A stretch of 64,000 bases of DNA, taken from contig CALJEL010000023.1 of NCBI GenBank assembly GCA_938074335.1, positions 1,554 through 65,553 of the forward strand, given 5' to 3'. How positions within the stretch are numbered: position 1 is the first letter of the stretch; each line of letters opens with the position of its first letter. Position numbers and translations under genes: made by a program. The DNA is from an uncultured bacterium (lineage in GTDB: Bacteria > Nitrospirota > Thermodesulfovibrionia > Thermodesulfovibrionales > CALJEL01). The notes beneath the pieces were generated by a model. It saw only the letters and a list, made by a program, of their open reading frames with translations. It ran no database searches and had not been told where the DNA came from. This document shows positions 20,888 through 50,204 of the stretch, in pieces.

Positions 20888-20903
20888 TGGCAAGGATTTT
20901 GCT
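20888..20903 (+). promoter_or_regulatory. Sigma54-type -24/-12 promoter TGGCAAGGATTTTGCT
   Basis: GG-N10-GC spacing. It lies 37 nt before the ATG at 20940, which has a GGAGGAG Shine-Dalgarno. Confidence 0.6.
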
Positions 20904-20939
20904 ATGTAATTTTTAGAATAGACCTTAAATGGAGGAGTT

Positions 20940-33743: not shown

Positions 33744-34667
33744 ATGAGGCATATATTTATCCTTATATCAGTCCTCTGTCTCTTAATCTTAACCATAAAC
33801 AGGAATAATCTCTGGCAGGATGACCTGAAGATGTGGGAGGATGTGATAAAGAAGTCACCAGGCAAGGTCAGGCCCTATATTAATCTTGCAGGTGCCTATC
33901 TCATGAAAAACAGGCTTGATGATGCCCTCTCAGTTCTATTTAAATCCACAGAGGTCTTCAGGGATGAGATAATGGAAGGTAATATCCACTATCTTATGGC
34001 TGCTGTTGAGATATTTCTTAATTTTGCTGCAGTCTATGGTATTAAGGGTGATATGGACAGGGCAATGGAATTCCTTCAGAAGGCTTATGAGACAAATCCT
34101 CAATCTCCAAAGGTGAATTATGCCCTTGCCTATGGTTTTATGGAAAAGGGTGACCTCAGGAAGGCAGAGGAATTCCTTAAAAATGCACTCTCCTTAGCAG
34201 AGGAGCCAAAGGCTTATTTTCTTTATGGAGAACTCTGTGAAAGACAGGGAAGGCTTGAGGAGGCTATAAGATATTTCAAAAGGGCAACAGAGCTTGAGCC
34301 TGAAAATAGCTCTTACCTTACAAGGCTTGGTTATCTTTTAAAGATCACAGGTAAGCCTGATGAGGCAGAAAGGGCATGGCTCAGGGCAATAAGGCTTACA
34401 GATAAAGAACCAGAGCCCTATGTTAACCTTGGTTCTCTCATGTATGAAAGAGGCTTCTTAAAAAGTGCCTATCAATATTATAAAAAGGCACTTGAGATAG
34501 ACCCAAACAATTATGAGGCACTTGTGGGTGCTGCCAATGTTATTGATGATCTTGGAAATTTTGCCCTTGCAAGGGAAATGTATGAAAAGGCAATAAAGGT
34601 TGCACCTGAAAGAAAAGAGGCCTACATTGAATATGAAAGGAGCCTTAAAAGACAGGGTAAGAGATAA
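33744..34667 (+). CDS. Membrane-anchored TPR protein (TMTC-type TPR module without catalytic domain)
   Basis: One N-terminal TM helix is followed by NRNNLWQDDLKMWEDVIKKSPGKVRPYINLAGAY and multiple TPRs. Confidence 0.75.
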   Translation: MRHIFILISVLCLLILTINRNNLWQDDLKMWEDVIKKSPGKVRPYINLAGAYLMKNRLDDALSVLFKSTEVFRDEIMEGNIHYLMAAVEIFLNFAAVYGIKGDMDRAMEFLQKAYETNPQSPKVNYALAYGFMEKGDLRKAEEFLKNALSLAEEPKAYFLYGELCERQGRLEEAIRYFKRATELEPENSSYLTRLGYLLKITGKPDEAERAWLRAIRLTDKEPEPYVNLGSLMYERGFLKSAYQYYKKALEIDPNNYEALVGAANVIDDLGNFALAREMYEKAIKVAPERKEAYIEYERSLKRQGKR

Positions 34668-35274
34668 GATAAGGGCAGCCCCTCTTGTGTTGATAATTAT
34701 TTTACTGGCTTATCTGGCATGGCAGAGGAATCATGTTTGGATGGATGACCTGAGCCTGTGGCGCGATGTGGTTAAAGGCTCACCTTACAGTCCAAGGGCA
34801 TGGTTTAATCTTTCTTTAGCCTGTGAAGGCTCTGGTGATATGGAGTGTGCCATGGATGCTATAAAAAGGTCAATAGAGCTTTATCCTGAACCAGCTGCCT
34901 TTATGAGGCTTGGTTTTTTAATGGAATATAGGGATAATTTAAAGGAGGCAGAGTTGCTTTATAATGAGGCAATAAACAGGGCTGAGCAGGATTCTATAAC
35001 AGATGAGATGAAGAGGTTTGTGAAGAGGCAATCTTATTATGGACTTGGGAGTCTGTATTTTAAAAGGGATAGCCTCAGGGAGGCTGAGTATTATTACAGA
35101 ATGACTGTTGAGATAGACCCTGAGTTCAGCTATGCCTGGAATGATCTTGGTTATGTCCTGATGAAACTCCGCAGGTGTGAAGAGGCACGAAATGCCCTGC
35201 TTAAGGCACTTGAGCTCTCACCAGAGGACAGGCTTGCAAGGGAAAATCTTGAACTTCTCAAGGAGTGTAAATGA
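34633..35274 (+). CDS. Membrane-anchored TPR protein (TMTC-type TPR module)
   Basis: I prefer the ATG at 34633 to the TTG at 34600. One TM helix is followed by QRNHVWMDDLSLWRDVVKGSP and TPRs. Confidence 0.65.
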   Translation: MKGALKDRVRDKIRAAPLVLIIILLAYLAWQRNHVWMDDLSLWRDVVKGSPYSPRAWFNLSLACEGSGDMECAMDAIKRSIELYPEPAAFMRLGFLMEYRDNLKEAELLYNEAINRAEQDSITDEMKRFVKRQSYYGLGSLYFKRDSLREAEYYYRMTVEIDPEFSYAWNDLGYVLMKLRRCEEARNALLKALELSPEDRLARENLELLKECK

Positions 35275-37232
35275 AGAGCTGGCAGGCAATAGTCCTTATT
35301 TTTATCACTGTATTCATTGCCTATTCAAATAGTTTTATGGTTCCCTTTCAGTGGGATGATTACAGCTACATTGTAAATAATATAAGGGTTAAGGATTCAG
35401 GAGAACTTTTTAGGAACTGGAATGGCTCAAGGTTCATGGGATTTTTCAGCTTCTGGCTTAATTTTATCACTGCAGGTCTCAGACCTGCTCCATACCACCT
35501 TGTAAATCTTACAATACATATTCTGAATTCCTTTCTTGTCTTCTTTTTAATAAGGCTTCTTCTCAGGCTCCATTTCAAGGATACCTACAGGGAATATGAG
35601 GACTGGATAGCCCTCTCAGCAGCATTGCTTTTTGGACTTCATCCTGTAAACACCATGGCAGTAACATACATAAGCCAGAGGTTTACAATACTCTCAACAC
35701 TCTTCTATCTCCTTTCTGTTTTCCTATATCTTAAGGCAAGGCTTCAATCCCGAAACACTCCTTTATATCTCCTGTCCATCCTTTCAGCCATACTTGCTAT
35801 GAAGACAAAGGAGATTGCCTTTACCCTTCCTTTTATAATATTCCTCCTTGAATTTCTCCACTTTAGGTCAGAAAGGCACTGGAGATATCTTATCCCCCTC
35901 TTTCTGACCCTTTTTATCATTCCCTTAAGCAGGATAGATGCGCTCTGGACGATAAAGGGGCAGACCCTTCTTCAAAAGACTTTAGAAACATCAGATATCC
36001 CGAGGCATATCTATCTATTTACAGAGTTCAGGGTTTTGTTAACCTATGTAAGACTCCTGTTTTTTCCTGTTAATCTTAACATTGATTATGACTATCCACT
36101 CTCAAGGAGCCTCTTTGAGACAGATACCTTTTTTGCAATGATTGTCCATATTACATTGATTGTTTCTGCCATTATTCTTATCAAGAGGTCAGTTCATGGA
36201 AGGCTTGTTGGTACAGGGATTCTCTGGTATTACATTACACTTTCAGTGGAATCAAGCATAATACCCATCACAGATGTTATATTTGAACACAGGCTCTATC
36301 TTCCCTTTACAGGTTTTATACTCGTTCTTGCAGGTGCAGTCCTGTGGTTCGTACCTCTGAAAAGATATGGTAAGGCACTTATAATCCTTATCTCTATTAT
36401 TGTAATTGTCCTTGGCACAGCTACATTTTTAAGGAATTCTGTCTGGTTATCCCAGAGAAGTATCTGGGAAGATGCTGTAGAAAAATCTCCAGGCAAGGTC
36501 AGGACAAGGCTAAATTATGCCCTTACACTTCCTCCTGAAGAGGCTATAAAAGAACTTGAGTGGGTCTTATCAAAAGACCCCTGGAATCTTTCTGCACTTA
36601 ACAAACTTGCAAGGATATTTATGGAGATGGGCCGTATCTCTGAGGCAGAGGAGATATTAAAAAAGTCAGGGCAAATAGTCTCAGAAAAAGAGCTCTTTTC
36701 CTATAGGGCAGACATCTGCCTTGAGAAGAAGGACTACATCTGTGCTATTGATAACTTAAAGAGGCTTATTGAGCTTGAGCCAGGCAGTTCAAGGCATTAT
36801 TTCAGGCTTGGCCTTGCCTGTGAATACATGGCAAGGTTTGATGAGGCAGAGGAGGCTTACAGAAAGGCAATTGCCCTTGACCCATCCAATGCCGATGCCA
36901 TTAATAATCTTGGTAATCTTATGGCTGAAAAGGGTAATCTCAAGGAATCCCTCAAGCTTCTTAAAAAGGCAAGGGCCCTTATGCCAGAAAGTCCAAGCAT
37001 ACTTCTGAATCTTGGCATAACCTATGCACAGCTTGGAGATTATAATGAAGCCCTCTGGCATATTGACAGGGCATTAAAGCTCAAACCAGACATGGCCGAG
37101 GCATGGTTTAATAAAGGACTTATCCTCTTACAGGCAGGGATGAAGGATGAGGGATGCATTGCCATAATGAAATCACTTGAGATATCACCAGGCTTTGAAA
37201 AGGCAAAGGAGGTCTTTAAGAACTGTAAATGA
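35271..37232 (+). CDS. TMTC-like GT-C glycosyltransferase fused to TPR domain (full-length form)
   Basis: The N-terminal motif is PFQWDDYSYIVNN. The polytopic region ends at VIFEHRLYLP, followed by a TM helix, then LRNSVWLSQRSIWEDAVEKSPGKVR and about 7 TPRs. The start overlaps the upstream stop as ATGA. Confidence 0.7.
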   Translation: MKSWQAIVLIFITVFIAYSNSFMVPFQWDDYSYIVNNIRVKDSGELFRNWNGSRFMGFFSFWLNFITAGLRPAPYHLVNLTIHILNSFLVFFLIRLLLRLHFKDTYREYEDWIALSAALLFGLHPVNTMAVTYISQRFTILSTLFYLLSVFLYLKARLQSRNTPLYLLSILSAILAMKTKEIAFTLPFIIFLLEFLHFRSERHWRYLIPLFLTLFIIPLSRIDALWTIKGQTLLQKTLETSDIPRHIYLFTEFRVLLTYVRLLFFPVNLNIDYDYPLSRSLFETDTFFAMIVHITLIVSAIILIKRSVHGRLVGTGILWYYITLSVESSIIPITDVIFEHRLYLPFTGFILVLAGAVLWFVPLKRYGKALIILISIIVIVLGTATFLRNSVWLSQRSIWEDAVEKSPGKVRTRLNYALTLPPEEAIKELEWVLSKDPWNLSALNKLARIFMEMGRISEAEEILKKSGQIVSEKELFSYRADICLEKKDYICAIDNLKRLIELEPGSSRHYFRLGLACEYMARFDEAEEAYRKAIALDPSNADAINNLGNLMAEKGNLKESLKLLKKARALMPESPSILLNLGITYAQLGDYNEALWHIDRALKLKPDMAEAWFNKGLILLQAGMKDEGCIAIMKSLEISPGFEKAKEVFKNCK

Positions 37233-38527
37233 GGCTGAAGAGGATATGGAGATTTCTGAGTTCAAGGGGCTTTGCCCTGTGGCTTTTATTGATTGTTATA
37301 TTAATCCTGATACTTTCAGCATTTCTTCCAAATGAATTCACCCTTTCAGAGGAAGAACTGCTAAGGCTTCAGACCGAAAGGCCCTTTTTATGGAGATTAT
37401 CCCAACACCTGAGCACACCTGCCATAGTAACAGGTCCGGTGTTCGTGGCAGTGTCATTTTTCCTTGCACTCTCCACACTCCTCTGCACCTATAAAAGATT
37501 GAGAAGCAGGCAGAGGGATTTCTCAAAGACAAGGGCTTTTCACTTCAATATAGTAGATAATGGTGGCTCAAGGGATAAGATATTAAAGGTCCTTGATTCA
37601 AGAGGCTGGAGCAGGGGGTTTGAGAGGTCCTCAGAAGATATCACATTAATAAAGGCTGACAGAGGAAGATATGGATTCTGGGGTTCTATAATATTTCACA
37701 TCAGCTTGATTGCTCTGTTTATTACAGCCATAATAAGTTCTGTTACCCGTTTTAATGGTGAGATACTGGTGCCAGAAAATACTTTGATATCTGCCTCAGA
37801 TAGTCTTAATTATATTTTTCTTGCAGGGAGCAGACCACCTGCCATAGAACTTTCAGTTACAGATATAAGGTTATCAGCCTCAGGACCTGTGCCTACTCAA
37901 TTAATGGCAGATATTCATGTGAGCTCAGGCAGTTATGAGATAGCTGTTAATAAACCAGTGATGATATCAGGTTATCAGTTTGCACCATCAAGATACGGGA
38001 TATCACCGAGGTTTGTAATATCTAAGGAGGGCAAGGTCATATTTGATGCCTTTGTTAATCTCAGGAGTCTATTTATTGAAGATTATTTTGAGATAAAGGA
38101 GGAAGGCCTGAGATTTGTGGTGAGATTCTTCCCTGATTTTTATAAAGAAAGGCAGACCTTTGGTACAAGGGGACTTGAAGAGAAAAATCCTGTATTTTAT
38201 ATTAAACTCTTCAAAGAGGGTAGCCCTGCAGGCTCGGTATTTCTAAGACCCGGTGAGGATTATAGTGTTGGTAATTATACAATTAAGCTACCAGAGTATT
38301 CGCACTGGATAACCCTTGTTATAAGCAGGGACCCTGGCACCTTTTCTTTTATCATCAGCTTTGCCTTTGCAATACTCGGACTATTTATCAGATTCATGAG
38401 TAATGAGAGGGTTCTGACTGTATTACTTTATAGTGATGGAAGATTTGAATTAAGGGGCTGGAGCAGGTATTATCCTGCCTTTCTGGAAAAGGAGATGAAT
38501 GATATAAGGGATGAGATTAAAGGCTGA
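37229..38527 (+). CDS. ccsB: System II cytochrome c biogenesis protein CcsB/ResB
   Basis: The N-terminus WRFLSSRGFALWLLLIVILILIL is ResB-like. A histidine sits in a TM helix (FWGSIIFHISLIALF). There is a large periplasmic segment and a C-terminal VISRDPG..TM. The start overlaps the upstream stop as ATGA. Confidence 0.75.
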   Translation: MRLKRIWRFLSSRGFALWLLLIVILILILSAFLPNEFTLSEEELLRLQTERPFLWRLSQHLSTPAIVTGPVFVAVSFFLALSTLLCTYKRLRSRQRDFSKTRAFHFNIVDNGGSRDKILKVLDSRGWSRGFERSSEDITLIKADRGRYGFWGSIIFHISLIALFITAIISSVTRFNGEILVPENTLISASDSLNYIFLAGSRPPAIELSVTDIRLSASGPVPTQLMADIHVSSGSYEIAVNKPVMISGYQFAPSRYGISPRFVISKEGKVIFDAFVNLRSLFIEDYFEIKEEGLRFVVRFFPDFYKERQTFGTRGLEEKNPVFYIKLFKEGSPAGSVFLRPGEDYSVGNYTIKLPEYSHWITLVISRDPGTFSFIISFAFAILGLFIRFMSNERVLTVLLYSDGRFELRGWSRYYPAFLEKEMNDIRDEIKG

Positions 38528-39182
38528 AGGAGCAGGCCGTATTTTTATATTTTTGATAATAAGCCTGTTTGTTCTGTTCAGTTATCAGAGGAACTGGGTC
38601 TGGCTTACCGAGATCTCTCTGTGGGAGGATGTGGCAAAAAAATCTCCACTGAAGGTAAGACCTCATTTTAATCTCGGGCTTGCCTATCTTAACAGGAATA
38701 GATTTGAACTGGCAGAAAAGAGCCTCAGGATGACGCTTTCTTTATATCCTGATTATCATAAGGCAAAGTATTATCTTGCAGAGGCCCTCTATAATCTGGG
38801 CTCCTATGAGGAGGCATTGAAATATCTGAAGGAGGTTGAATTTCTTTATATAAATGTCCTTCCCCATTTCCCTGAAAAATGGGAAGGTGTATCAATGGCA
38901 TTTAGCGAGGCAGATCTTTACAATAATATTGCCTCATGCTATTATGGTGTCAATAATTTAAGGTCAGCAGAGGAGTATTATAGAAAGGCACTCCTGAAAG
39001 ATAGATTCCATATATATGCCATAAAGGGACTTATTACAGTGCTTGCTGATGAGGGAAGGATAGTGGAAGCAATCAGGCTCCTTGAAGATACTATCAGGGA
39101 TATGCCACCTTCTTTAAAGAGGGATGAGTTAGTGGAGATACTCTGGACGCTCAGGGATAGTCCTGAGCCCAGGAGGAGGTAA
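38511..39182 (+). CDS. Membrane-anchored TPR protein (TMTC-type TPR module) inserted between ccsB and ccsA
   Basis: One TM helix is followed by QRNWVWLTEISLWEDVAKKSPLKVRPHFNLGLAY and TPRs. It overlaps ccsB by 17 nt and ends 1 nt before ccsA. Confidence 0.7.
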   Translation: MRLKAEGAGRIFIFLIISLFVLFSYQRNWVWLTEISLWEDVAKKSPLKVRPHFNLGLAYLNRNRFELAEKSLRMTLSLYPDYHKAKYYLAEALYNLGSYEEALKYLKEVEFLYINVLPHFPEKWEGVSMAFSEADLYNNIASCYYGVNNLRSAEEYYRKALLKDRFHIYAIKGLITVLADEGRIVEAIRLLEDTIRDMPPSLKRDELVEILWTLRDSPEPRRR

Positions 39183-39183
39183 G

Positions 39184-39993
39184 ATGGGAAAAGTTGAGGG
39201 TATCTTCGTCTGGCTTGCCATAGGTCTTTACAGCCTATCCTTTATAACAGGTCTATTTTCCTTTGTTTTTAAGAGACAGATGGGAACGGGATTGGGCTTC
39301 TTAAGGATGGCTGTGGCTGCTCATGGGATTTCAATTGTTATGAGATGGTATGTAACAGGCCATCTACCTGTAATGGGAGTATATGAGAATTCCTTGATGG
39401 GTTCATGGTTTATTGGTATTACCTTTATATTCCTGCATCTATTCTTCAGGCAGATTGCTGGTTTTTATCTCGTGGTCTCTCCTGTGATACTTTTGATCCT
39501 TGGCAATGGTATCCAGAGCGGTGCTGAGCTTACACCCCTTGAACCTCCTTACAGGTCTAACTGGTTATATGTGCATGTGCTTTTTGCCTGGCTTGCCTTT
39601 GGAAGTTATTTTGTGGCAGCCTTTATTGGTCTGATAACACTCTTAAGAGACTTTATTGTGAAGAGATTCTCTTTCAATGTCCCTGAGGAGAAATTTCTTG
39701 ATGAGTTTTCCTTAAGGCTTATACTGTTTGGTTTTTTTTCAGAAAGTATAATGATAGGCTCTGGTGCCATATGGGCTCATGGATTGTGGGGAAGATACTG
39801 GGGGTGGGATCCTGTTGAGACATGGTCACTGATATCATGGCTTACCTATGGATTGAACCTTCACCTCAGGCTCACTTATGGATGGAGGGGCAAAAGGGCT
39901 GCCTGGCTTGCTATTGTTTCCCTTATCACAGTTATAGGTCTATTTTTTGGAATAGGTTATATCTCAGGCCTTCATACAAGGATGCTTGGCTGA
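39184..39993 (+). CDS. ccsA: System II cytochrome c synthase subunit CcsA
   Basis: It is a polytopic protein with the Trp-rich WWD-type motif WGRYWGWDPVETWSLISW (39787-39840), flanked by conserved His residues (IWAHG, LNLHLR). Confidence 0.85.
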   Translation: MGKVEGIFVWLAIGLYSLSFITGLFSFVFKRQMGTGLGFLRMAVAAHGISIVMRWYVTGHLPVMGVYENSLMGSWFIGITFIFLHLFFRQIAGFYLVVSPVILLILGNGIQSGAELTPLEPPYRSNWLYVHVLFAWLAFGSYFVAAFIGLITLLRDFIVKRFSFNVPEEKFLDEFSLRLILFGFFSESIMIGSGAIWAHGLWGRYWGWDPVETWSLISWLTYGLNLHLRLTYGWRGKRAAWLAIVSLITVIGLFFGIGYISGLHTRMLG

Positions 39994-40704
39994 CTAATCT
40001 TTAAATCTGTATTTTATGATGCTCCACAATATCCTGATGCCATCAAGGATATGAGGTTTTTTGCCTTCCTTCCGGTTCCTTGCCCTGTACCTTACAGGTA
40101 CTTCATTAATCCTTATTCCCCTCTTCAGCACCTTTGCAGTTACCTCTGGACAGAATTCAAAGCCCTTTGATTTGATATCTATATCCTGTAAGACCTCCTT
40201 TCTGAAGACCTTGAAGGCAGTCCCTTCATCCGTAATATTTGTTTTATAAAGTAGATTTACAAGGCCTGTGAATATTTTATTGGCAACCCAGTTTTCAGGT
40301 CTCATCCTTTCAGGCCATCTTTTGTGAAGAAACCTGCTACCATAAACAACCTTTACTTCAGGATCTTTGAAAGGTGAAAGAAGTTTCCGGTATTCCGAGG
40401 CAGGATATTCAAGGTCTCCATCCTGGATAAGAACTATATCACCTTTGGCAACCCTCAGGCCTGATTTAATCGCAGAGGCCTTTCCAAGGTTATTTTTATG
40501 TGTAACGATTTTTAAGGGATATTTTTCTGCATAATCCTTAAGTAATTCTTGAGTCCTGTCAGTGGAGCCATCATCAATTATTATGATCTCTTTTTCAAAA
40601 GGCGAGGTGTCTGCTCTTAAAATCTCCTCAAGGAGTTCATGAATAAGATGCCCTTCATTATACACAGGAACCAGTACAGATACAATCATCTTTAATTGTA
40701 TCAT
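39994..40704 (-). CDS. Family 2 glycosyltransferase (polyprenyl-phosphate sugar synthase-like)
   Basis: Signatures are VSVLVPVYNEGHLI, IIIIDDGSTDRT and QDGDLEYP. Confidence 0.8.
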   Translation of the reverse strand: MIQLKMIVSVLVPVYNEGHLIHELLEEILRADTSPFEKEIIIIDDGSTDRTQELLKDYAEKYPLKIVTHKNNLGKASAIKSGLRVAKGDIVLIQDGDLEYPASEYRKLLSPFKDPEVKVVYGSRFLHKRWPERMRPENWVANKIFTGLVNLLYKTNITDEGTAFKVFRKEVLQDIDIKSKGFEFCPEVTAKVLKRGIRINEVPVRYRARNRKEGKKPHILDGIRILWSIIKYRFKD

Positions 40705-40850: not shown

Positions 40851-42002
40851 ATGCTTAGAACCCGCTTTGATCTCCTCGCAATAGGGCTTATAATCCTTGC
40901 AGTGGCAGTGGCCTATTCAAATACCTATACAGCCTCATTCCATTTTGACGACCAGCATACAATAGTGGAAAATCCCCGTATAAAACACCTTAAAAATATC
41001 CCTTCTTTTTTCTGGAATAATGAAGGGCCAGTTGGCTCAAGGCCTTTGCTTCTTGTGACAGTTGCTCTAAATTATGCAATCGGAGGGCTCCATGTCACTG
41101 GTTATCACATATTCAACAACCTTCTTCATGCAATTAACGGAATACTTTTCTATTTCTTTATGTTAATGGTTCTGAATCTTCCACGATTCAGGGACAGATA
41201 TGCCCAGCTTTCACGGGAGATTGCACTCCTCGGGTCATTGCTCTTTGTAGTTCATCCTGTGCAGACAGAGGCAGTCACATATATAATAAGCAGGTCAATG
41301 CCCATGGCAACATTTTTTTATCTCCTTGGCTTTATTCTCTATACAAGGGCTTTTGAGACAGGAAAGCAGTCTCTCTATATCTGGTTATTCGTCGTAAGTT
41401 TTCTTGGTATGGCATCAAGGGAGGATTATATTACATTTCCTGCTATGCTCTTCATATACGATTTCATGCTCCTCAGTTCTTTTAAAGATGCCTTAAGAAG
41501 GTGGAAGATATACCTTCTGCTTGGAATCACTGTAGCCTACAGGCTCTGGCTAAGCCTTACATATAAGGGGACTGAGGAGGCAGCAGGGTTTGGTGTAAAG
41601 CTTCTCACACCATATCAATATCTACTTACACAGTTTAATGTGATATGGACATATGTGAGGCTACTCTTCCTTCCAATTAATCAGAATCTTGATTATGATT
41701 ATCCTATTGCTAGATCCATATTTGAGTTTCCCACCATCCTTTCCTTTACAGGACATCTTCTGGTAATCGCTCTTGCAATATGGATCTATAAAAGAAACAG
41801 GCTTGTAACCTTTCTGATTTTATGGTGGTATATTACACTCTCACCTTCCTCAAGTTTTATACCCATTATTGATGTTATCTTTGAACACAGGGTTTATCTT
41901 CCCTCTATCGGATTTTTCTTTTTATTCATGATTGCTTACGAATATCTCTGGGAAAGGATAAGGCAGAAGATTCCTAAAAAGGCGATTCAAGAAAGTGGAT
42001 GA
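40851..42002 (+). CDS. TMTC-like GT-C glycosyltransferase, catalytic membrane domain only (no TPR)
   Basis: Motifs are SFHFDDQHTIVENPRI, HPVQTEAVTYI and PINQNLDYDYP. The protein ends shortly after VIFEHRVYLP, at the point where 35271..37232 continues into its TPR domain. Confidence 0.7.
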   Translation: MLRTRFDLLAIGLIILAVAVAYSNTYTASFHFDDQHTIVENPRIKHLKNIPSFFWNNEGPVGSRPLLLVTVALNYAIGGLHVTGYHIFNNLLHAINGILFYFFMLMVLNLPRFRDRYAQLSREIALLGSLLFVVHPVQTEAVTYIISRSMPMATFFYLLGFILYTRAFETGKQSLYIWLFVVSFLGMASREDYITFPAMLFIYDFMLLSSFKDALRRWKIYLLLGITVAYRLWLSLTYKGTEEAAGFGVKLLTPYQYLLTQFNVIWTYVRLLFLPINQNLDYDYPIARSIFEFPTILSFTGHLLVIALAIWIYKRNRLVTFLILWWYITLSPSSSFIPIIDVIFEHRVYLPSIGFFFLFMIAYEYLWERIRQKIPKKAIQESG

Positions 42003-42691
42003 GAGCCCTTATAATAATCCCTGCATATAATGAAGAGGCAAATATCCCGAAGGTTGCAGAGGATCTTAAAGAATCTATCCATGATGCAGTTGTTATAAAT
42101 GATGGCTCCACTGACAAGACCCATCAGATAGCAAGAGATCTCGGGTTCAAGGTTCTTAATCATCCCTATAATATTGGTGTAGGTGGTGCTGTTCAGACAG
42201 GTCTGAAGTATGCCCTTTTAAGGGATTATGATATTGCCATTCAGTTTGATGGAGATGGCCAGCACAGGGCAGATCAGATAGAGAATATAATAAGACCTGT
42301 GTTCAATGATGAGGCTGACCTTGTTATTGGCTCAAGGATTCTTGGCGGGGGATATAGATTTCCTCTTTTAAGAAGGATAGGGGGTAGATGGTTCTCTCTG
42401 CTGCTTTATCTTTCAGCGGGCATAAAGATTACAGACCCCACATCAGGTTTCAGATGTTATGGCAGAAGGGCAATGGAATTCTTCTCAAGCTGTTATCCAG
42501 AGGACTATCCAGAGGTGGAATCCATTATATATGCCTCAAAGGCAGGCTTGAGGATAAAGGAGGTGCCTTCACTTATGAGACAGAGGACAGGTGGAAGGTC
42601 ATCCATTGGAGTATTTCAATCAATTTATTACATGCTCAAGGTAAGCATAGGTGTGATGCTGACTTCTTTAAGAAGCATAAGGAGGTGGTAA
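41999..42691 (+). CDS. Family 2 glycosyltransferase, GtrB/ArnC/DPM1-like polyprenyl-phosphate glycosyltransferase
   Basis: Signatures are ALIIIPAYNEEANI, VINDGSTDKT, FDGDGQH and TDPTSGFR. The start overlaps the upstream stop. Confidence 0.8.
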   Translation: MRALIIIPAYNEEANIPKVAEDLKESIHDAVVINDGSTDKTHQIARDLGFKVLNHPYNIGVGGAVQTGLKYALLRDYDIAIQFDGDGQHRADQIENIIRPVFNDEADLVIGSRILGGGYRFPLLRRIGGRWFSLLLYLSAGIKITDPTSGFRCYGRRAMEFFSSCYPEDYPEVESIIYASKAGLRIKEVPSLMRQRTGGRSSIGVFQSIYYMLKVSIGVMLTSLRSIRRW

Positions 42692-42692
42692 G

Positions 42693-43031
42693 ATGGATAT
42701 AGTTCAGATTATCTCTTTTTTGATCGGGGTGGTTCTGTTTCTTTCTGTTGTCTTTTTAATAATAACAGGAAGGCTCAAGGAGAGGTATTCCCTGCTCTGG
42801 CTTGCTTCATCTCTTTTTATCTGCATCCTTTCCATTTCAAGAAGGCTCCTTGAATATATCTCCTACAAGCTTGGTATTTATTATCCACCCTCGTTGCTCT
42901 TCCTTGCAGGAGTGCTTTTTTTGCTTGCTATAAATATATCCTTTTCAGTAACCATATCAAGACTTTCTTCAAAGGTTGATACACTTGCCCAGGAGATAGC
43001 CCTGCTAAAAGAAAATAAGGGTAGTCCCTGA
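42693..43031 (+). CDS. Small membrane protein, DUF2304-like
   Basis: The 112-aa protein has three hydrophobic helices. The motifs ERYSLLWL, YYPPSLLFL and AQEIALLK match my recollection of DUF2304, which commonly follows GtrB-like GT2 genes. Confidence 0.7.
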   Translation: MDIVQIISFLIGVVLFLSVVFLIITGRLKERYSLLWLASSLFICILSISRRLLEYISYKLGIYYPPSLLFLAGVLFLLAINISFSVTISRLSSKVDTLAQEIALLKENKGSP

Positions 43032-43034
43032 ATC

Positions 43035-43043
43035 TGGTAAAAT
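43035..43043 (+). promoter_or_regulatory. Extended -10-like element TGGTAAAAT, 5 nt upstream of the ATG at 43049 (leaderless-type)
   Basis: The 12-mer TCTGGTAAAATA (43033-43044) is identical to that at 33728. There is no Shine-Dalgarno sequence. Confidence 0.35.
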
Positions 43044-43048
43044 AGAAT

Positions 43049-44488
43049 ATGAAGGTTTTGTTTCTCAATCCTCCTTATGGAAAGGACTTCTGCAGGTCTG
43101 CAAGATGGGCTGCTCGTTCAAGGGGAAGGGTACAAAGGCATCCTGACTGGTTGCTTATTGCAGCAGCAGTCCTTGAAAGAGAGGGGCATAAAGTAAAGTT
43201 CATTGATGGTGCAGCACTTAATCTTGAATTTAATGATATTGAAAGAGAACTCTCTCGTTTTAAACCAGAGCTCACAGTCATTCATACAACCACTCCATCT
43301 ATCTACAATGATATAAGATATGCAGAGCTGGCAAAGAAGAGAGGCTCAATGACTGTGCTCATTGGTCCTCATGTATCAGCAGAACCCGAGGATACATTTA
43401 AAAAATCTCCTTTTATTGATGCTATTGTCATAGGAGAATATGATTATACCCTCAGGGAGATTGCAGAAGGAAGGAGTCTGGAAGATATAAAGGGTATTGC
43501 CTATCCTGAAGATGGAACAATAAAGATAACTCCTTTTAGAGAGCCTCTTGATGTAAAGGAGCTTCCCTTTCCAGCCTGGCACCACATAAGACCAGAATGG
43601 TACAGGGATGCGGGTAAGAGATTTCCCTTCCTTACACTCATCTCAGCAAGGGGTTGTCCTAATAGATGTTCTTTCTGCAGGGACACCTCTGTTATGTATG
43701 GAAGGAGGTTAAGGTTCAGGGAGCCTGAGCAGGTGGTTGATGAGATAGAGTATGATTTTAAACTCTTTCCGTATATTAAAGAGATTATGTTCGAGACAGA
43801 TACCTTTACTGCCTCGGCAGCTCATGTAAGAGGCATCTGCGAGGAGATATTAGGCAGAAATCTTAAGATTACCTGGAGCTGTAATGTGAGGGTGGATATG
43901 GACCTGACTCTACTTCCATTAATGAAGAAGGCAGGCTGCAGGATGCTGATGGTGGGTTATGAATTTGGAACTCAGGAGGCACTTGATGCAGTTCATAAGG
44001 GTATAACACTGGAGCAATCAAGGAGATTTACAGAGGAGGCAAGAAGACTTGGTTTTACGATTCATGGATGTTTTATGGTCGGTGCTCCAGGAGAGACGAA
44101 GGATTCTGTACTTAAGACAATAGAATTTGCAAAGTCCTTACCCATTGACACTGTCCAGTTTTCAGGTATATGTCCTTATCCTGGAACAGAGCTTTACAGA
44201 TGGGCAAAAGAGAATAACTATCTTCTTGTAACGGACTGGACAGACTGGGTTAATGAAGACCTGGAACAGGTTACACTCCTGAATTATCCTCAGCTATCAA
44301 AGAAGCAGATGGATGAGCTGATAGATAAAGGACTTAAGGAATTCTATCTAAGGCCACAGCAGATAATAAGAATGCTCTGGAATATGAGAAGTCCTGAGGA
44401 TATAAAGAGGAAGCTCTATGGATTCAGGAGTTTTATGGATTATTTTTTAAAAAAAGGGAAAAGGCATCATGAGGGTGTTGCTCATTGA
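43049..44488 (+). CDS. B12-binding-domain radical SAM enzyme (1 of 3)
   Basis: The N-terminus MKVLFLNPPY is typical of a B12-binding Rossmann-type domain. The Cx3Cx2C cluster motif CPNRCSFC lies at 43655-43678. Confidence 0.85.
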   Translation: MKVLFLNPPYGKDFCRSARWAARSRGRVQRHPDWLLIAAAVLEREGHKVKFIDGAALNLEFNDIERELSRFKPELTVIHTTTPSIYNDIRYAELAKKRGSMTVLIGPHVSAEPEDTFKKSPFIDAIVIGEYDYTLREIAEGRSLEDIKGIAYPEDGTIKITPFREPLDVKELPFPAWHHIRPEWYRDAGKRFPFLTLISARGCPNRCSFCRDTSVMYGRRLRFREPEQVVDEIEYDFKLFPYIKEIMFETDTFTASAAHVRGICEEILGRNLKITWSCNVRVDMDLTLLPLMKKAGCRMLMVGYEFGTQEALDAVHKGITLEQSRRFTEEARRLGFTIHGCFMVGAPGETKDSVLKTIEFAKSLPIDTVQFSGICPYPGTELYRWAKENNYLLVTDWTDWVNEDLEQVTLLNYPQLSKKQMDELIDKGLKEFYLRPQQIIRMLWNMRSPEDIKRKLYGFRSFMDYFLKKGKRHHEGVAH

Positions 44489-45893
44489 TCCACCAGGGAT
44501 AGAGGGTTTAGCTGTTGGAAGGGTGCTTGGAAGCTTTGGTATCAATAAGGCTGACCAGGCATGGCCACCCTATGACCTGCAGATATTTGCAGGATACTGT
44601 AGAAAGAATGGTCATGAATATAAAATCATTGATGCCAACAATCTTAACATTTCCAGTGATGAACTTAAAGATAATATAAAAGAATTTAATCCCAACTGGG
44701 TTGTTTATCTTACCTGTTTTCAGACCTTTGAACTTGATGTAGGGGTTGCAAGACTTGCAAAGGAGGTTAATCCATCTATCAATACAGCCTGCATCTCCCT
44801 TTCTATATTCAGTGTGGAAGACCCTGAAGGCTTTATGAGGAGGCATCCCTATCTTGATTTTATAATATGGGGTGAGCCAGAGATCCCTTTAATGAGATTG
44901 ATTAACGGAGAAATGCCTGAGGTTATCAAAGGCCTGTATTATAGAAAAGATAGCAATATCTTTTTCACAGGAGAGGCAGAGAGGCTCAGAAACCTTGATG
45001 AGCTGGGGATACCTGTCCACAAAGATATGCCTTTCCATATCTACAGATGTCCCCTTGCAAAGAGAAGACCCTTAACCATAGTGAACTGTTCAAGGGGTTG
45101 TATTAACTGGTGTATTCACTGTCAGGCAGGCGCATTCCAGAAACCATTGAGATACAGGTCTTTAGAATCTGTCATGGAAGAAATAAGAGAGATAAAGACT
45201 CTTGGTATAAAAGAGATAAAATTTTATGATTGTTCTTTGCCCACAAATAGAGAGTTTACCATGAATTTATGTGAGAAGATGATAGAAGAAGGTTTTGATT
45301 TTACATGGCATTGTAATGCAAGGGCAGACAGGATTGACAGGGAGATCCTTAGATTAATGAAAAAAGCAGGCTGTCATACAATAAGCATAGGTTGCGAGAG
45401 CGCAGATCCCCTGATATTGAAAAACATGAGAAAAAATGAGACACCTGAAGAGATAGAGTATGCGGTTAGACTTGTTAAGGAATCAGGTATGAGGGTTCTC
45501 ATGTATCTCACCTTTGGACTGCCTGGAGAGACAGAGGAGACCATGGAAAGGACCTTTGACTTTGTAAGGCGTATGAAACCTGATTATGTCACCTTTGGCA
45601 TAGTGGTTCCTGCTCCTGGTACTCCCTTTTACAGGGAGTTAAAAGAAAAAGGTTATCTTGTCCAGAAAGAGCTTCACTGGCAGGATCCCACAGCCCTGCC
45701 ATCCTTTAATTATCCTCATCTCAGTGGAGACAGGATACTCCAATTCACAAGGGAGGCATATAAGAGATATTATCTTTCACCAGAATATATCCTCAGAAGG
45801 TTATTTTCCATAAGGACCTTTGATGAATTTGCTGCCTCTTTCTCAAATGCCCTGGCAATAATAAAGAGATATGTGCTTGGAGCAAGACACTGA
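44469..45893 (+). CDS. B12-binding-domain radical SAM enzyme (2 of 3)
   Basis: The N-terminus is MRVLLIDPPG. The Cx3Cx2C motif CINWCIHC lies at 45099-45122. It overlaps the upstream gene by 20 nt. Confidence 0.85.
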   Translation: MRVLLIDPPGIEGLAVGRVLGSFGINKADQAWPPYDLQIFAGYCRKNGHEYKIIDANNLNISSDELKDNIKEFNPNWVVYLTCFQTFELDVGVARLAKEVNPSINTACISLSIFSVEDPEGFMRRHPYLDFIIWGEPEIPLMRLINGEMPEVIKGLYYRKDSNIFFTGEAERLRNLDELGIPVHKDMPFHIYRCPLAKRRPLTIVNCSRGCINWCIHCQAGAFQKPLRYRSLESVMEEIREIKTLGIKEIKFYDCSLPTNREFTMNLCEKMIEEGFDFTWHCNARADRIDREILRLMKKAGCHTISIGCESADPLILKNMRKNETPEEIEYAVRLVKESGMRVLMYLTFGLPGETEETMERTFDFVRRMKPDYVTFGIVVPAPGTPFYRELKEKGYLVQKELHWQDPTALPSFNYPHLSGDRILQFTREAYKRYYLSPEYILRRLFSIRTFDEFAASFSNALAIIKRYVLGARH

Positions 45894-45895
45894 CA

Positions 45896-47026
45896 ATGGC
45901 TGTTGTACTTGTAACCGAAGAGGCAATTCCACCGGTTTATAGATTTTCTCTTACGGAAAAGCTTGCCATTGAACTCGCTGATAGGGGAGTAAAGGTCCAT
46001 CTTGTATGCAGAAAGGGTGAAGGAGAATTTCAGCATTATGGAGTTACCTGTCATCCTGTTCATGTAAAAGACTGGAGTCTTTTTAATCTAAAAAAAAGGG
46101 CAGAGGCTAACCTGAGTCTTGTCTTTAAGATATGGGAGGTCATGAGAAAAGATGACATAAAACTTGTGTATGGATGGTGGCCTGTTTTGTTTTTTTCAAG
46201 GATAGCAGGGAGCCCAGTGGCTGCAGATATGCCAGAATTTATAGATGTGATGTACAGGAGTTTTAATAAACCCCTTCATTTTCTCCTCTCACCCTTGCTC
46301 CGGTTTTTTCAAAGGACAGTAGCAACCATGAGCAGGGTTGTCATTACAGAGTCTGATATGGCAAGGGCTGTATGGGCAAGCAGGGGTATAGATTATAAAA
46401 AGACCTGTTCTATACCTTATGGAGTGGATGTGAATCATTTTATCTCTGTTGAAAAAGACAGGGATTTCAGAAAGAGATTTGAAATCTCTGAGGAAGAACT
46501 GCTCATTATGTATCACGGAGACATAGGCATAGATGATGGTGTTGATTTATTAATAGAGGCAACAGAGGGGCTTGATGCAAGGGTTGTAATAATAGGTGAG
46601 GGCGATCCGGGTTATATGAGACACCTCAGAAAGATAGCTCACAGCAGGGTAATATTTACAGGCTGGATTCCCTATAAGCAGATCCCTGGCATATTAAAAA
46701 ATGCTGACCTGTATGTGGCACCATTCAGGAGTTCCCTTTATACAAATACAACCTATCCTCTGAAGATAATGGAGGCAATGGCAGCAGCCCTGCCTGTGGT
46801 GGTATCCCATCTCCAAGCCTTATCCTTATATCTGAGGGATGGTAAGGATTCAGTCTTTTTCAAACCATCTGATATAGATGATATGAGGACAAAGATTATA
46901 TATTTGCTGAAGGATGAAGGGCAGAGGAGGCAACTTGGTCAGGAGGCCTTGAGAACTGCTCAAAAGTATTTTGACTACAGGTTAAGGATAAAAAGAGAGT
47001 CAGACCTGCTTTTAGGACTGTTATGA
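45896..47026 (+). CDS. Family 4 (GT-B, Glycos_transf_1-type) glycosyltransferase
   Basis: The C-terminal half shows LLIMYHGDIG, VIIGEGD and YPLKIMEAMAAALPVVVS, typical of GT4 retaining glycosyltransferases. Confidence 0.75.
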   Translation: MAVVLVTEEAIPPVYRFSLTEKLAIELADRGVKVHLVCRKGEGEFQHYGVTCHPVHVKDWSLFNLKKRAEANLSLVFKIWEVMRKDDIKLVYGWWPVLFFSRIAGSPVAADMPEFIDVMYRSFNKPLHFLLSPLLRFFQRTVATMSRVVITESDMARAVWASRGIDYKKTCSIPYGVDVNHFISVEKDRDFRKRFEISEEELLIMYHGDIGIDDGVDLLIEATEGLDARVVIIGEGDPGYMRHLRKIAHSRVIFTGWIPYKQIPGILKNADLYVAPFRSSLYTNTTYPLKIMEAMAAALPVVVSHLQALSLYLRDGKDSVFFKPSDIDDMRTKIIYLLKDEGQRRQLGQEALRTAQKYFDYRLRIKRESDLLLGLL

Positions 47027-48429: not shown

Positions 48430-48433
48430 TAAG

Positions 48434-49399
48434 ATGTTGAAGGTCTCGGTCATCATACCTGTTTATAACAGGGCACATATAATAGGAGCTGTTATAGAGG
48501 CATTGCTTGAGCAGGAGCATAAGCCTCTTGAGATCATCATAGTGGATGACGGCTCTACGGATAATACCCGTGAGGTGGTTAAGTCATACCCTGTGAAATA
48601 TATCTATCAGGAAAACAGGGGCCCTGCCTCTGCCAGGAACAGGGGATTCAGGGAATCAAAGGGAGATATTGTTGCCTTTATTGATTCAGACTGTATCGCA
48701 AAAAAGGACTGGCTCAAGAATTTAATAAAGGGATTTGACTCGTCTGAGGTTGGTGCCGTTGCTGGCTCTTATGATATTGCAAATTCACAGAGCCTTCTTT
48801 CACGGCTCATACATGAGGAGATTAAATGGAGGCATTCAGGATTTAAAAGATTTATCCGTGCCTTTGGTTCTTATAATGTGGCAATAAGGAGAGAGGTCTT
48901 TGAGAAGGCAGGTGGATTTGACGAGTCCTACAGGACGGCAAGCGGTGAGGATAATGATCTTTCTTACAGGATACTGAAGGCCGGTTATAAGATAAGATTT
49001 GTACCCGATGCACTTGTTGCCCATTATCATACCGAAAATCTTTTTAAATACCTTAAAGAACAGTACAGGCATGCCTTCTGGAGGATGAAACTTTATAAAG
49101 ACCATCCTGACATGATAAGGGGAGATGACTATACAGGGTTGAAGGATGCGATTGAGATACCTGTCTCTGTTCTTTCACTTTGCGGTCTTCCGTTACTATT
49201 GACTCAATACAGTTTTTTTGAATTTCTTCTTTTGGGTTTCCTTGTCCTTCTTCTACTGCCCTTACCTGTAAGGATCAGCCTTCAGAAAAGGGATCCCAGA
49301 TACCTGATTATGGCTATGCTCTTTTTTTTCAGGGCCCTTGTAAGGGCTGCTGGGATGATGGAAGGAATAGTGAGATTCTGGCTTTTTAATAGAAGTTAA
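48434..49399 (+). CDS. Family 2 glycosyltransferase with C-terminal membrane segment
   Basis: Signatures are VSVIIPVYNRAHII, IIIVDDGSTDNT, IDSDC and SGEDNDLSYR. The C-terminus has hydrophobic helices. Confidence 0.8.
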   Translation: MLKVSVIIPVYNRAHIIGAVIEALLEQEHKPLEIIIVDDGSTDNTREVVKSYPVKYIYQENRGPASARNRGFRESKGDIVAFIDSDCIAKKDWLKNLIKGFDSSEVGAVAGSYDIANSQSLLSRLIHEEIKWRHSGFKRFIRAFGSYNVAIRREVFEKAGGFDESYRTASGEDNDLSYRILKAGYKIRFVPDALVAHYHTENLFKYLKEQYRHAFWRMKLYKDHPDMIRGDDYTGLKDAIEIPVSVLSLCGLPLLLTQYSFFEFLLLGFLVLLLLPLPVRISLQKRDPRYLIMAMLFFFRALVRAAGMMEGIVRFWLFNRS

Positions 49400-50184: not shown

Positions 50185-50204
50185 CTTTTGATAGTATATC
50201 ATAT

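Follow-up and report, generated by a model that had tools for sequence, protein, structure and literature searches.

A System II cytochrome c synthase interleaved with TMTC-like glycosyltransferase and TPR genes in a Nitrospirota bacterium: a possible combined module for haem attachment and glycosylation

The 64,000-nucleotide stretch of DNA analysed here (the window) raises the question of why the two genes of a cytochrome c synthase are interleaved with genes for TPR proteins and a membrane glycosyltransferase, downstream of a giant multihaem cytochrome. A preliminary description had proposed an island-encoded, cluster-private CcsB/CcsA that could be specialised for the C-x4-CH haem motif or for handling a 2,807-aa apoprotein. 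Its observation proved correct and its interpretation holds in part. We give roughly even odds (a probability of about 0.5) to the reading that the operon unites haem attachment and glycosylation in one module serving the secreted cytochromes encoded nearby. The features of the locus are collected in Table 1.

Table 1. Features of the window around the synthase genes, in order of position.
Feature	Position	Strand	Evidence
OmcE-type cytochrome cluster	14102..23615	+	Pfam, PDB match
Giant secreted multihaem cytochrome, 2,807 aa	23624..32047	+	motif counts, Pfam
Fused MFS-like membrane domain and spermidine-synthase-like methyltransferase fold (MFS/SpdSyn-like), 535 aa	32115..33722	+	NF037959
TPR1, headless TM-TPR paralogue, 307 aa	33744..34667	+	ORF, Pfam, blastp, alignment
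TPR2, headless TM-TPR paralogue	34633..35274	+	ORF, Pfam, blastp, alignment
Probable TMTC-like GT-C glycosyltransferase, 653 aa (~390-aa polytopic membrane head and periplasmic TPR tail)	35271..37232	+	
ResB/CcsB, System II synthase subunit, 432 aa	37229..38527	+	PF05140
Wedge TPR, 223 aa	38511..39182	+	Pfam TPR matches
CcsA/ResC, System II synthase subunit, 269 aa, WWD domain and flanking histidines	39184..39993	+	PF01578
GT2 glycosyltransferase, polyprenyl-phosphate sugar synthase-like	39994..40704	-	PF00535, 125 bits
Glycosylation cluster	40851..50247	.	syntenic in L002, L088

ResB matched its Pfam model with 90.6 bits (cutoff 24.6), has four predicted TM helices (15-33, 66-84, 154-172 and 372-390) plus a large periplasmic domain, and carries a TM histidine, H157, that is kept in 96% of 68 ResB homologues; a PDB sequence search with ResB gave no match. 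CcsA scored 122 bits against its Pfam model (cutoff 29.9) and 161.7 against TIGR03144, under the equivalog cutoff of 187.6, and aligned with the solved CcsBA structures 25vk and 7s9y. Its residues H131, H227 and H264 were invariant (alignment A1), and the WWD motif reported earlier was found as WGRYWGWDPVETW at residue 202. The Pfam and PDB matches, the conserved histidines and the WWD motif identify ResB and CcsA as the two subunits of a genuine System II cytochrome c synthase of the conventional kind, which would export haem and attach it at Cys-Xn-Cys-His sites.

The gene order is TPR, TPR, GT-C/TPR, ResB, TPR, CcsA, and the junctions of the last four are as first described: the ATG of ResB overlaps the TGA of the 653-aa gene in an ATGA, the ORF of the third TPR gene (the wedge TPR) overlaps the end of ResB by 17 nt, and it ends 1 nt before the ATG of CcsA. 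The listed ORF of TPR2 begins at TTG 34600, and ATG 34633 is the more likely start. Judged by their spacing, the six genes appear to form one translationally coupled operon. It is correct that the whole block lies directly downstream of the giant cytochrome, but ResB itself lies ~5 kb away, with four genes between. The six-gene order was kept in all relatives with 67-93% CcsA identity (loci L002/3, L004/5, L088-L092 and L094); there, stop codons overlap or touch the following start codons, and a wedge TPR orthologue separates ResB from CcsA. The TPR block of L090 also contains a GT2 gene. In a group with 62% identity (L009, L011) a GT-C/TPR orthologue with all motifs lies directly 3' of CcsA, showing that the GT-C/ccsBA linkage survives rearrangement. 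In L004 and L089 the same block sits beside yidC, near neither cytochrome nor GT2 genes, which speaks against a cluster-private synthase.

The name 'TMTC-like' given to the 653-aa protein rests on motif conservation and fold similarity and was not confirmed by Pfam, where the head had no match even at E<=10 with the DUF1736 and PMT models included. Conserved in the head are D29-D30, K180-E181-x3-T185 and E339-x-R341-x-Y343, matching the motifs of TMTC (PMC7801869). An AF2 model of residues 1-400 reached a pLDDT of 81 and a pTM of 0.85, and the top Foldseek matches of the head in the PDB were STT3, PIGU, AglB, PglB and ArnT, with weak E-values of 0.014-0.5. On motifs and fold, the protein is probably a TMTC-like GT-C glycosyltransferase.

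The wedge TPR has one N-terminal TM anchor, an R-N-x-V-W...LWEDV-x-KSP junction and then TPR repeats. By blastp it matched TPR2 (E=1e-21), TPR1 (E=9e-17) and residues 360-653 of the GT-C protein (E=4e-9), and it is a 'headless' paralogue, or duplicate, of the adjoining protein's TPR tail. TPR1 and TPR2 are likewise paralogous to this tail (blastp; alignment A4), and the glycosylation cluster ends with a fourth headless TM-TPR copy (49396-50247, minus strand). In 76/76 metagenome loci outside the window's lineage this family was either fused to a GT-C head or headless, the headless genes often standing in tandem arrays or beside GT-C/GT2 genes, and in 0/76 did it lie beside ccsBA. From these sequence relationships the TPR genes would seem to belong with the glycosyltransferase. 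At L076 two headless TM-TPR genes are coupled to CcsA-ResB: they overlap the stop codon of ResB, and no GT-C head adjoins them. A direct partnership of synthase and TPR protein would account for this arrangement at least equally well.

The OmcE-type cluster encodes an unknown 631-aa protein, a SurA-like PPIase, an NHL propeller, three cytochromes with 4, 7 and 4 haems, and an FG-GAP/BACON protein; a 260-aa tetrahaem protein (20008-20790) matched OmcE 7TFS (E=1.3e-14) and the filament entry 9YUQ (E=4e-18). The giant cytochrome has 51 sites, comprising 40 CX2CH, exactly the 10 CX4CH counted before, and 1 CX6CH, the CX4CH sites lying within a repeated tri-haem unit (residues 430-1465). It matched PF09698 (GSu_C4xC__C2xCH), PF14522 and PF22113, contains 22.3% Ser+Thr and has 50 N-x-S/T sequons. 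The MFS/SpdSyn-like gene (127.5 bits, cutoff 40) recurs beside ResB/CcsA in Nitrospirota and adjoins ccsBA in L002, L007, L009, L011, L016, L032, L041, L061 and L074. The GT2 gene is convergent with CcsA, with zero intergenic space, and its best NCBIfam resemblances were to AglJ, PpgS and ArnC-type enzymes, all under their cutoffs. Beyond it, the glycosylation cluster encodes an unknown 383-aa membrane protein, GT2, DUF2304, three B12-radical-SAM proteins, GT4, GT2 and the headless TM-TPR protein; clusters for cytochromes, ccsBA and glycosylation co-occur in the window, L002 and L090. The suggestion of an island was not upheld, as there was no tRNA or integrase to mark one, the GC content was even, the flanks were housekeeping genes and the cluster was syntenic in relatives.

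The proposed combined module would work at the inner membrane, on its outer face. Sec-exported, unfolded, Ser/Thr-rich cytochromes would be held by the TPR modules on emergence, haem would be attached by ResB/CcsA, and sugars would be added by the GT-C enzyme from a polyprenyl-phosphate donor supplied by the neighbouring GT2. As clients we would expect the giant cytochrome and the OmcE-like filament subunits encoded upstream, plausible glycosylation substrates in view of the Ser+Thr content (22%) and sequons of the former. The GT-C acceptor is presumed to be protein, lipid or polysaccharide being the alternatives.

A pair dedicated to C-x4-CH or to the giant apoprotein, with a separate housekeeping synthase, which would resemble the case of NrfI, CcsA1 and CcsA2 in Wolinella, is very improbable. 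Cytochrome-linked ResB/CcsA pairs were widespread across the loci surveyed, and in an NJ tree the window CcsA, set apart from the Thermodesulfovibrio/Nitrospiraceae type (40-43% identity), did join giant-cytochrome-linked CcsA of Geobacterales and other Nitrospirota, in favour of such dedication. Many neighbouring cytochromes also carry CX4CH (CX2CH/CX4CH counts of 28/8 at L007, 23/10 at L013, 37/9 at L019 and 22/11 at L026), and the Geobacterales genomes JAENWA01, VFJM01 and MGRL01 hold this CcsA type plus another. However, close CcsA relatives adjoin giant cytochromes with zero CX4CH (L020, L024, L031, L047, L068), and CX4CH-rich giant cytochromes adjoin CcsA genes of at least three clades, among them clades other than its own at L069 (26/9), L080 (25/9) and L034 (21/4). 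Nor is the WWD region distinctive, being the same across clades, where scans with LWGRYW[GA]W and DPVETWSL retrieved all; moreover, ordinary CX2CH makes up 40 of the 51 client sites, and in L004 and L089 the block has no cytochrome gene nearby. The window synthase is most probably not specialised for CX4CH.

Somewhat unlikely, in our view, is an incidental fusion of operons, in which ResB/CcsA would mature cytochromes c in general for the lineage, perhaps as its sole synthase, the GT-C/TPR proteins would serve unrelated targets (envelope proteins, pili, LPS or exopolysaccharide, for example) and the wedge TPR would owe its place to duplication and play no part in haem attachment. The setting of the block among rpmH, yidC, groESL and lgt in L004 and L089 would fit this, as would the housekeeping contexts of related CcsA (L008/L015, L022), the tie of the TM-TPR family to GT-C rather than ccsBA elsewhere, the unrelated inserts between ResB and CcsA in other lineages (a 4-TM protein, a lipoprotein, an ABC ATPase) and, among the best 80 genome hits, the lack of a second copy in Nitrospirota assemblies with this CcsA type. 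Such a fusion sits poorly with tight coupling (1-29 nt overlaps) kept at 67-93% CcsA identity and with the wedge TPR down to ~40%, with the GT-C/ccsBA linkage in changed gene order at L009 and L011, with the independent coupling at L076 and with the joint clusters in the window, L002, L090 and Desulfuromonadia. The wedge TPR, perhaps with TPR1 and TPR2, might instead be an apocytochrome-holding adaptor independent of glycosylation, a functional analogue of CcmI/NrfG that would help to thread very long, many-site apoproteins through the synthase; we hold this to be distinctly unlikely. The gene does lie inside the synthase pair, translationally coupled on both sides, its orthologous group is conserved with distinctive non-consensus surface positions, L076 offers a parallel, and System I has membrane-anchored TPR apocytochrome chaperones, with NrfG a substrate adaptor (PMC3884852). 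TPR1 exceeded the threshold of PF23914 TPR_CcmH_CycH (58 bits, cutoff 42), but TPR families cross-hit one another and the wedge TPR did not match that model. GT-C is, furthermore, the default partner of the family, and most ResB/CcsA pairs by equally large cytochromes have no TPR (L007, L017, L019, L047), indicating that cytochrome size alone does not require one.

NrfI, CcsA1 and CcsA2 of Wolinella succinogenes are reportedly fused CcsBA synthases whose motif specificity was shown experimentally. The window likewise has System II synthase genes beside a presumed client cytochrome with non-standard haem motifs, but its subunits are separate and the clade of CcsA does not follow the haem motif. 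The described System II components include, as had been stated, no TPR or GT-C partners (CcdA, ResA, CcsA, CcsB; PMC3884852). System I does include membrane-anchored periplasmic TPR chaperones, CcmI and NrfG of the NrfEFG lyase (PMC3884852), and the wedge TPR, similarly anchored and encoded with a WWD-domain synthase, is a plausible apocytochrome holder or adaptor; unlike them, it accompanies another maturation system, has no specific sequence relationship to them and is paralogous to a glycosyltransferase tail. Eukaryotic TMTC1-4, protein O-mannosyltransferases of the GT-C/PMT clan (PMC7801869), resemble the window GT-C in having a polytopic GT-C domain at the N-terminus, a TPR tail on the lumenal/periplasmic side and the motifs DD after TM1, KE-x3-T and E-x-R-x-Y, while the window protein is bacterial, has no Pfam DUF1736 match and has free-standing headless TPR paralogues encoded alongside it.

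Cytochrome-linked ResB/CcsA pairs are already known from Geobacter, where ResB/ResC(HemX)-like pairs are co-transcribed with multihaem cytochrome genes (Aklujkar et al. 2009, PMC2700814). There, as in the window, ResB and CcsA-type genes are separate and immediate neighbours of genes for large multihaem cytochromes, and a Geobacter genome has several pairs of this kind. The Geobacterales homologues nearest to the window CcsA (52-57% identity) follow GSu_C4xC-type cytochromes (L006, L013, L014, L019, L026). In contrast to the window, the Geobacter pairs adjoin directly (gap 8-340 nt), with no TPR between and no GT-C in the operon. In Desulfuromonadia, resB/ccsB flank OmcE clusters, after which come glycosylation genes (GT2/4/39 and TPR), and OmcE of G. 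sulfurreducens shows extra densities that are likely glycosylation (bioRxiv 10.1101/2025.10.22.684050). The window similarly brings together synthase genes, an OmcE-type nanowire cluster (multihaem cytochromes, beta-propeller) and a GT2/GT4/GT-C and TPR block. Whereas in Desulfuromonadia the synthase genes form a conserved flank and the glycosylation genes come after the cytochrome cluster, in the window ResB and CcsA are interspersed with the GT-C and TPR genes and coupled to them in translation, and the 2,807-aa cytochrome and the MFS/SpdSyn-like gene are also inserted. The interleaved six-gene block is the unusual part, a variant of a known arrangement that is specific to this Thermodesulfovibrionales-related lineage.

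The synthase pair lies in the downstream half of a run of six genes on the forward strand, comprising two TPR genes (TPR1 and TPR2), a gene for a 653-aa GT-C/TPR protein, ResB, a 223-aa TM-TPR gene (the wedge TPR) and CcsA. Reading of the sequence bore out all structural details of the preliminary description: the ResB start and the upstream stop overlap as ATGA, the end of ResB and the start of the wedge TPR overlap by 17 nt, one base separates the stop of the latter from the CcsA start, CcsA carries the WWD motif WGRYWGWDPVETW at residue 202, and the giant cytochrome encoded upstream (2,807 aa) has, by motif count, exactly ten CX4CH sites. ResB and CcsA lie in the same operon, with 656 nt from the end of one to the start of the other. 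CcsA scored 122.1 bits against PF01578 (Pfam cutoff 29.9) and 161.7 against the NCBIfam equivalog TIGR03144, under the cutoff of 187.6, which places it in the family at family level and not at equivalog level. Its H131, H227 and H264 are invariant among 14 homologues and, in alignment, coincide with histidines of the solved CcsBA structure 25vk. CcsA can be assigned to the System II CcsA/ResC family, with haem export and thioether formation as its predicted functions. ResB, at 90.6 bits against PF05140 (Pfam cutoff 24.6), has four predicted TM helices bracketing a periplasmic stretch of ~200 aa and a TM histidine, H157, conserved in 96% of 68 homologues; this HMM score, TM layout and conserved histidine mark it as a System II ResB/CcsB.

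Positions of the features discussed, in the window or in homologous loci (L numbers) from genome and metagenome scans
Feature	Locus	Position	Strand	Remarks
TPR1	window	33744-34667	+	
TPR2	window	34633-35274	+	
653-aa GT-C/TPR gene	window	35271-37232	+	ORF list
ResB	window	37229-38527	+	ORF list, PF05140
Wedge TPR, 223 aa	window	38511-39182	+	ORF list
CcsA	window	39184-39993	+	ORF list, PF01578
Fourth headless TM-TPR gene	window	49396-50247	-	same plan as wedge TPR
Giant cytochrome	window	23624-32047	+	
Fused MFS-like/spermidine-synthase-like protein	window	32115-33722		NF037959
Tetrahaem protein, 260 aa	window	20008-20790	+	OmcE-like
Tetrahaem paralogues of the preceding	window	18079-18852; 6223-6942; 7014-7649		211-260 aa, the preceding protein included
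PMT_2-family GT-C	window	9279-10820		second cytochrome cluster
FGE-sulfatase-like gene	window	12432-13259	-	second cytochrome cluster
ORFs of 380-630 aa	window	14102-15997; 4366-6090 (-); 7625-9301; 10786-12447 (-); 40851-42002; 51569-52789; 53085-54227		no Pfam match
Headless TM-TPR genes after ResB	L076	12233-13099; 13492-14331		
Four-TM protein, ~125 aa	L033; L049	1966-2346; 9629-10000		between ResB and CcsA
Lipoprotein family, ~150-170 aa	L038; L055; L024	1591-2049; 8114-8581; 10869-11375		conserved; motif ASEREM-x-RV; between or beside ResB and CcsA
ABC ATPase	L055	8578-9501		with lipoprotein in ResB-CcsA interval

The GT-C/TPR protein consists of a membrane head, for which thousands of homologues were found, and TPR repeats that are clear from about residue 400 to 653. 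Residues 1-410 gave no Pfam match even at E<=10, neither to DUF1736 nor to the PMT family, and comparison of the 653-aa protein with PDB sequences returned nothing outside the TPR region. Among 31-35 homologues, D29-D30 after TM1 is nearly invariant, and K180-E181...T185 and E339, R341 and Y343 are invariant. Human TMTC1-4 have three catalytic and donor-binding motifs, a DD pair located in the first outer loop, KET(Q)xxT and ERxxY (PMC7801869), to which D29-D30, K180-E181-x3-T185 and E339-x-R341-x-Y343 correspond. A Foldseek search with the full-length model matched TPR proteins only, and residues 1-400 were refolded alone, giving an AF2 model with pLDDT 81.4 and pTM 0.85. The top nine PDB matches of this model were all GT-C or GT-C-like (human and yeast STT3, PIGU, AglB, PglB and ArnT), with probabilities of 0.99-1.0, TM scores of 0.40-0.53 and weak E-values (0.014-0.28). 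From the modelled fold and the motifs, the 653-aa protein is predicted to be a GT-C glycosyltransferase of TMTC type, and the odd TM count, together with the TMTC analogy, suggests that its TPR tail would lie on the non-cytoplasmic side. Geobacter blast matches of the 'TMTC_N-like' kind near ccsBA (L052, L054, L063, L079 and L084) lacked any GT-C/TMTC motif, and were rejected as evidence for a wider link between ccsBA and GT-C genes.

The wedge TPR, TPR1, TPR2 and a fourth gene of the window share a common plan, in which an N-terminal TM helix is followed by a junction, R-N-x-(V/I)-W...L-W-x-D-V-x-K-S-P, and then by TPR repeats. The same plan is found in residues 360-653 of the GT-C/TPR protein and, judged by sequence, the four genes are 'headless' paralogues of its tail; the closest paralogue of the wedge TPR is TPR2 (34% identity, E=1e-21). 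A metagenome scan for this TM-TPR family yielded 80 loci, and 52 headed and 54 headless motif-bearing ORFs. ResB/CcsA was nearby in only four of the loci, all from the window's own lineage; in the other 76 the TM-TPR was fused to a GT-C head or was headless, and outside the window's lineage many headless loci were tandem arrays or had GT-C or GT2 genes as neighbours. The default partner of the family is thus a glycosyltransferase. An independent exception to this pairing, found from the CcsA side, is L076, a Nitrospirota MAG with a different CcsA clade and the order CcsA then ResB, in which ResB is followed by a pair of headless TM-TPR genes that share the R-N-x-x-W junction, the first overlapping the ResB stop by 4 nt; no GT-C head adjoins them. 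Tandem arrays of three to five headless genes were seen in L107, L147, L148, L151, L152 and L154, some adjoined by a divergently oriented GT-C head-type gene, and these arrays suggest a 'split TMTC' organisation whose TPR modules would be interchangeable.

All relatives whose CcsA is at least 67% identical (L002/3, L004/5, L088, L089, L090, L091, L092 and L094) have the wedge TPR, most of them with the overlapping or abutting stop-start junctions kept, and no other ResB/CcsA pair examined has it. Among the annotated loci, a ResB-to-CcsA gap of 625-774 nt was confined to the window's lineage. Scans for sigma-70 promoters and terminators gave noise-level output only. Interrupted ResB/CcsA pairs were themselves not rare in the annotated loci of other lineages, and the four-TM protein of L033 and L049, the lipoprotein that occupies the interval in L038 and L055, and the ABC ATPase that accompanies it in L055 are candidate uncharacterised System II accessories. 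The NF037959 protein encoded between the giant cytochrome and TPR1 recurs beside ResB/CcsA in Nitrospirota (L002, L007, L009, L011, L016, L032, L041, L061 and L074), across different CcsA clades and gene orders, and may have an accessory role in cytochrome maturation that has gone unrecognised.

The giant cytochrome contains 40 CX2CH, 10 CX4CH and 1 CX6CH motifs, ordinary CX2CH making up four fifths of these sites, and is 22% Ser+Thr with 50 N-x-S/T sequons. All the CX4CH sites are confined to residues 430-1465, where they are arranged as a repeated unit, CX4CH...CX2CH...CX2CH, that is recognised by the Pfam family PF09698 ('Geobacter CxxxxCH...CXXCH motif'); CX4CH is thus an established feature of a known large-cytochrome family and no peculiarity of this protein. 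The lone CX6CH (CLNPASGCH, residues 282-290) could represent either a further haem site, the 51st, or a coincidental match.

These sites had led to the suggestion that the synthase is dedicated to CX4CH, a proposal on which a survey of CcsA relatives bears. A scan of species-representative genomes with a CcsA alignment gave 281 relatives (best match 62% identity), of which the best 80 were kept and annotated by script. Among these, the usual order at or above ~48% CcsA identity was giant cytochrome, ResB, CcsA, a layout found in Geobacterales, Nitrospirota, Anaeromyxobacter and other 'Deltaproteobacteria' (for example L006, L007, L013, L014, L017-L020, L024-L026, L031 and L047), and two or three CcsA copies per genome were seen in JAENWA01, VFJM01, MGRL01 and PJFC01. 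Four ResB-like genes are reported for G. sulfurreducens and as many for G. metallireducens, every one sharing its transcript with a ResC/HemX-like gene and several genes for multihaem cytochromes (Aklujkar et al. 2009; PMC2700814). Cytochrome-linked synthases are therefore common and have been described before. In a neighbour-joining tree the window's CcsA grouped with CcsA proteins linked to giant cytochromes in Nitrospirota MAGs (56-63% identity) and in Geobacterales (52-57%), and the Thermodesulfovibrio/Nitrospiraceae type (40-43%) formed a separate clade, a placement compatible with an accessory paralogue. No second synthase copy was found among the annotated ORFs of the window, and none of the Nitrospirota assemblies with its CcsA type, among the best 80 of 281 and as incomplete MAGs, also had a Thermodesulfovibrio-type copy.

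The phylogeny thus upheld the separation of this CcsA from the Thermodesulfovibrio/Nitrospiraceae type, but the haem motif of the neighbouring cytochrome did not follow the synthase clade. Close CcsA relatives stand beside giant cytochromes free of CX4CH (CX2CH/CX4CH counts of 15/0 in L020, 13/0 in L024, 18/0 in L031, 18/0 in L047 and 14/0 in L068), and CX4CH-rich ones adjoin CcsA of at least three clades (26/9 in L069, 25/9 in L080 and 21/4 in L034 for other clades); related CcsA genes also occur in purely housekeeping neighbourhoods (L008/L015 and L022). The WWD region was not distinctive, as two peptide patterns drawn from it retrieved all these clades, and literature searches gave no experimental data on CX4CH handling by System II. 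Proximity to CX4CH alone does not indicate a motif-dedicated synthase, and we regard such a dedication here as highly improbable.

The description of the region as an island was likewise not sustained. The tRNA scan detected no tRNA in the window, the Rfam scan found nothing, no integrase or transposase was present among the annotated ORFs, and GC content is even (0.38-0.47 throughout). The right end carries the ordinary metabolic genes panB, MTHFR, folD and folE, and the whole arrangement is syntenic in L002 (79% CcsA identity), as is the region in L088. Neither is the synthase strictly private to the cytochrome cluster: in L004 and L089 the intact six-gene block adjoins rpmH/yidC, near groESL/lgt, and no cytochrome lies within 10 kb.

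Upstream of the operon lie genes for a SurA-like PPIase, an NHL propeller, three small multihaem cytochromes and an FG-GAP/BACON protein. The 260-aa tetrahaem protein matches the OmcE nanowire subunit 7TFS (E=1.3e-14) and the 16-chain filament entry 9YUQ (E=4e-18) and, with its paralogues, suggests that this Nitrospirota lineage encodes OmcE-type cytochrome filaments, as four paralogues in two clusters. The second cluster (2004-13259) holds a 13-site cytochrome, an NHL propeller, two of the OmcE-like tetrahaem genes and the FGE-sulfatase-like gene; it has its own PMT_2 GT-C, so that the window contains two instances of cytochrome genes paired with a GT-C gene. CcsA is followed by GT2, DUF2304, B12-radical-SAM and GT4 genes. 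CcsA (+) and GT2 (-) converge at 39993/39994 with zero intergenic bases, and in L002 CcsA is followed by a GT2 on the + strand with 41% identity, as against 75-82% for neighbouring genes, which indicates local replacement or inversion. At 43049-48429, three genes for B12-binding radical-SAM proteins are interspersed among those for glycosyltransferases, an arrangement conserved in L002 and L088, and their products may modify sugars or peptides. ORFs of 380-630 aa without a Pfam match also occur in the cytochrome and glycosylation clusters. The one at 40851, a 383-aa membrane protein, is conserved after CcsA in L002 (82% identical) and occupies the equivalent place in L088; L012 has a homologue of 48% identity immediately upstream of ResB, on the other strand.

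Taking the observed gene identities, paralogy, fold, motifs and operon conservation together, we propose, with a probability of about one half, that the operon encodes a combined module by which secreted multihaem cytochromes are matured. In such a module ResB and CcsA would export and attach haem, the GT2 beside CcsA would load sugar onto polyprenyl phosphate, the GT-C enzyme would pass it, on the periplasmic side, to the polypeptide while this is still unfolded, and the TM-anchored TPR modules would hold or present the substrate; here we infer both which substrate is glycosylated and what the TPR proteins do. The operon might instead be an incidental fusion in which the target of glycosylation is unrelated, a reading that we find fairly unlikely. 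In the group with 62% CcsA identity (L009 and L011), a true GT-C/TPR orthologue with all motifs lies directly downstream of CcsA, and the linkage of GT-C and synthase thus survives rearrangement.

System II is not known to have a substrate chaperone. The TPR proteins could be chaperones of the CcmI/NrfG kind, acting independently of glycosylation, a reading favoured by L076; it is gene position that points to apocytochrome binding by, or synthase association of, such a candidate. Against this, the wedge TPR had no match to PF23914 (CcmH/CycH TPR) at E<=0.01, and we consider this role distinctly unlikely. TPR1 scored 58 bits against the same model (cutoff 42), with many TPR models scoring higher on it. 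A more elaborate form of the combined module, in which the membrane-anchored TPR proteins would bridge ResB/CcsA and the TMTC-like GT-C into one physical complex at the Sec exit, so that haem ligation and glycosylation of the unfolded giant apocytochrome would be coupled mechanistically, with the wedge TPR as the first System II counterpart of CcmI/NrfG, is unlikely as it stands.

Overall, this is a cytochrome-linked System II synthase that is here fused at operon level to a TMTC-like glycosylation system. It bears on how secreted cytochromes with dozens of haem sites are matured and how nanowire-type cytochromes become glycosylated: an operon that hard-wires a synthase to a protein-type glycosyltransferase and TPR modules is a compact candidate for coupled haem attachment and glycosylation, and could furthermore provide components for the heterologous production of giant or filamentous cytochromes. 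According to a 2025 preprint, resB/ccsB in Desulfuromonadia flank OmcE clusters, behind which come GT2/4/39 and TPR genes for glycosylation, and OmcE of G. sulfurreducens shows extra densities that probably reflect glycosylation (bioRxiv 10.1101/2025.10.22.684050); the neighbourhood described here mirrors that synteny of synthase, OmcE and glycosylation genes.
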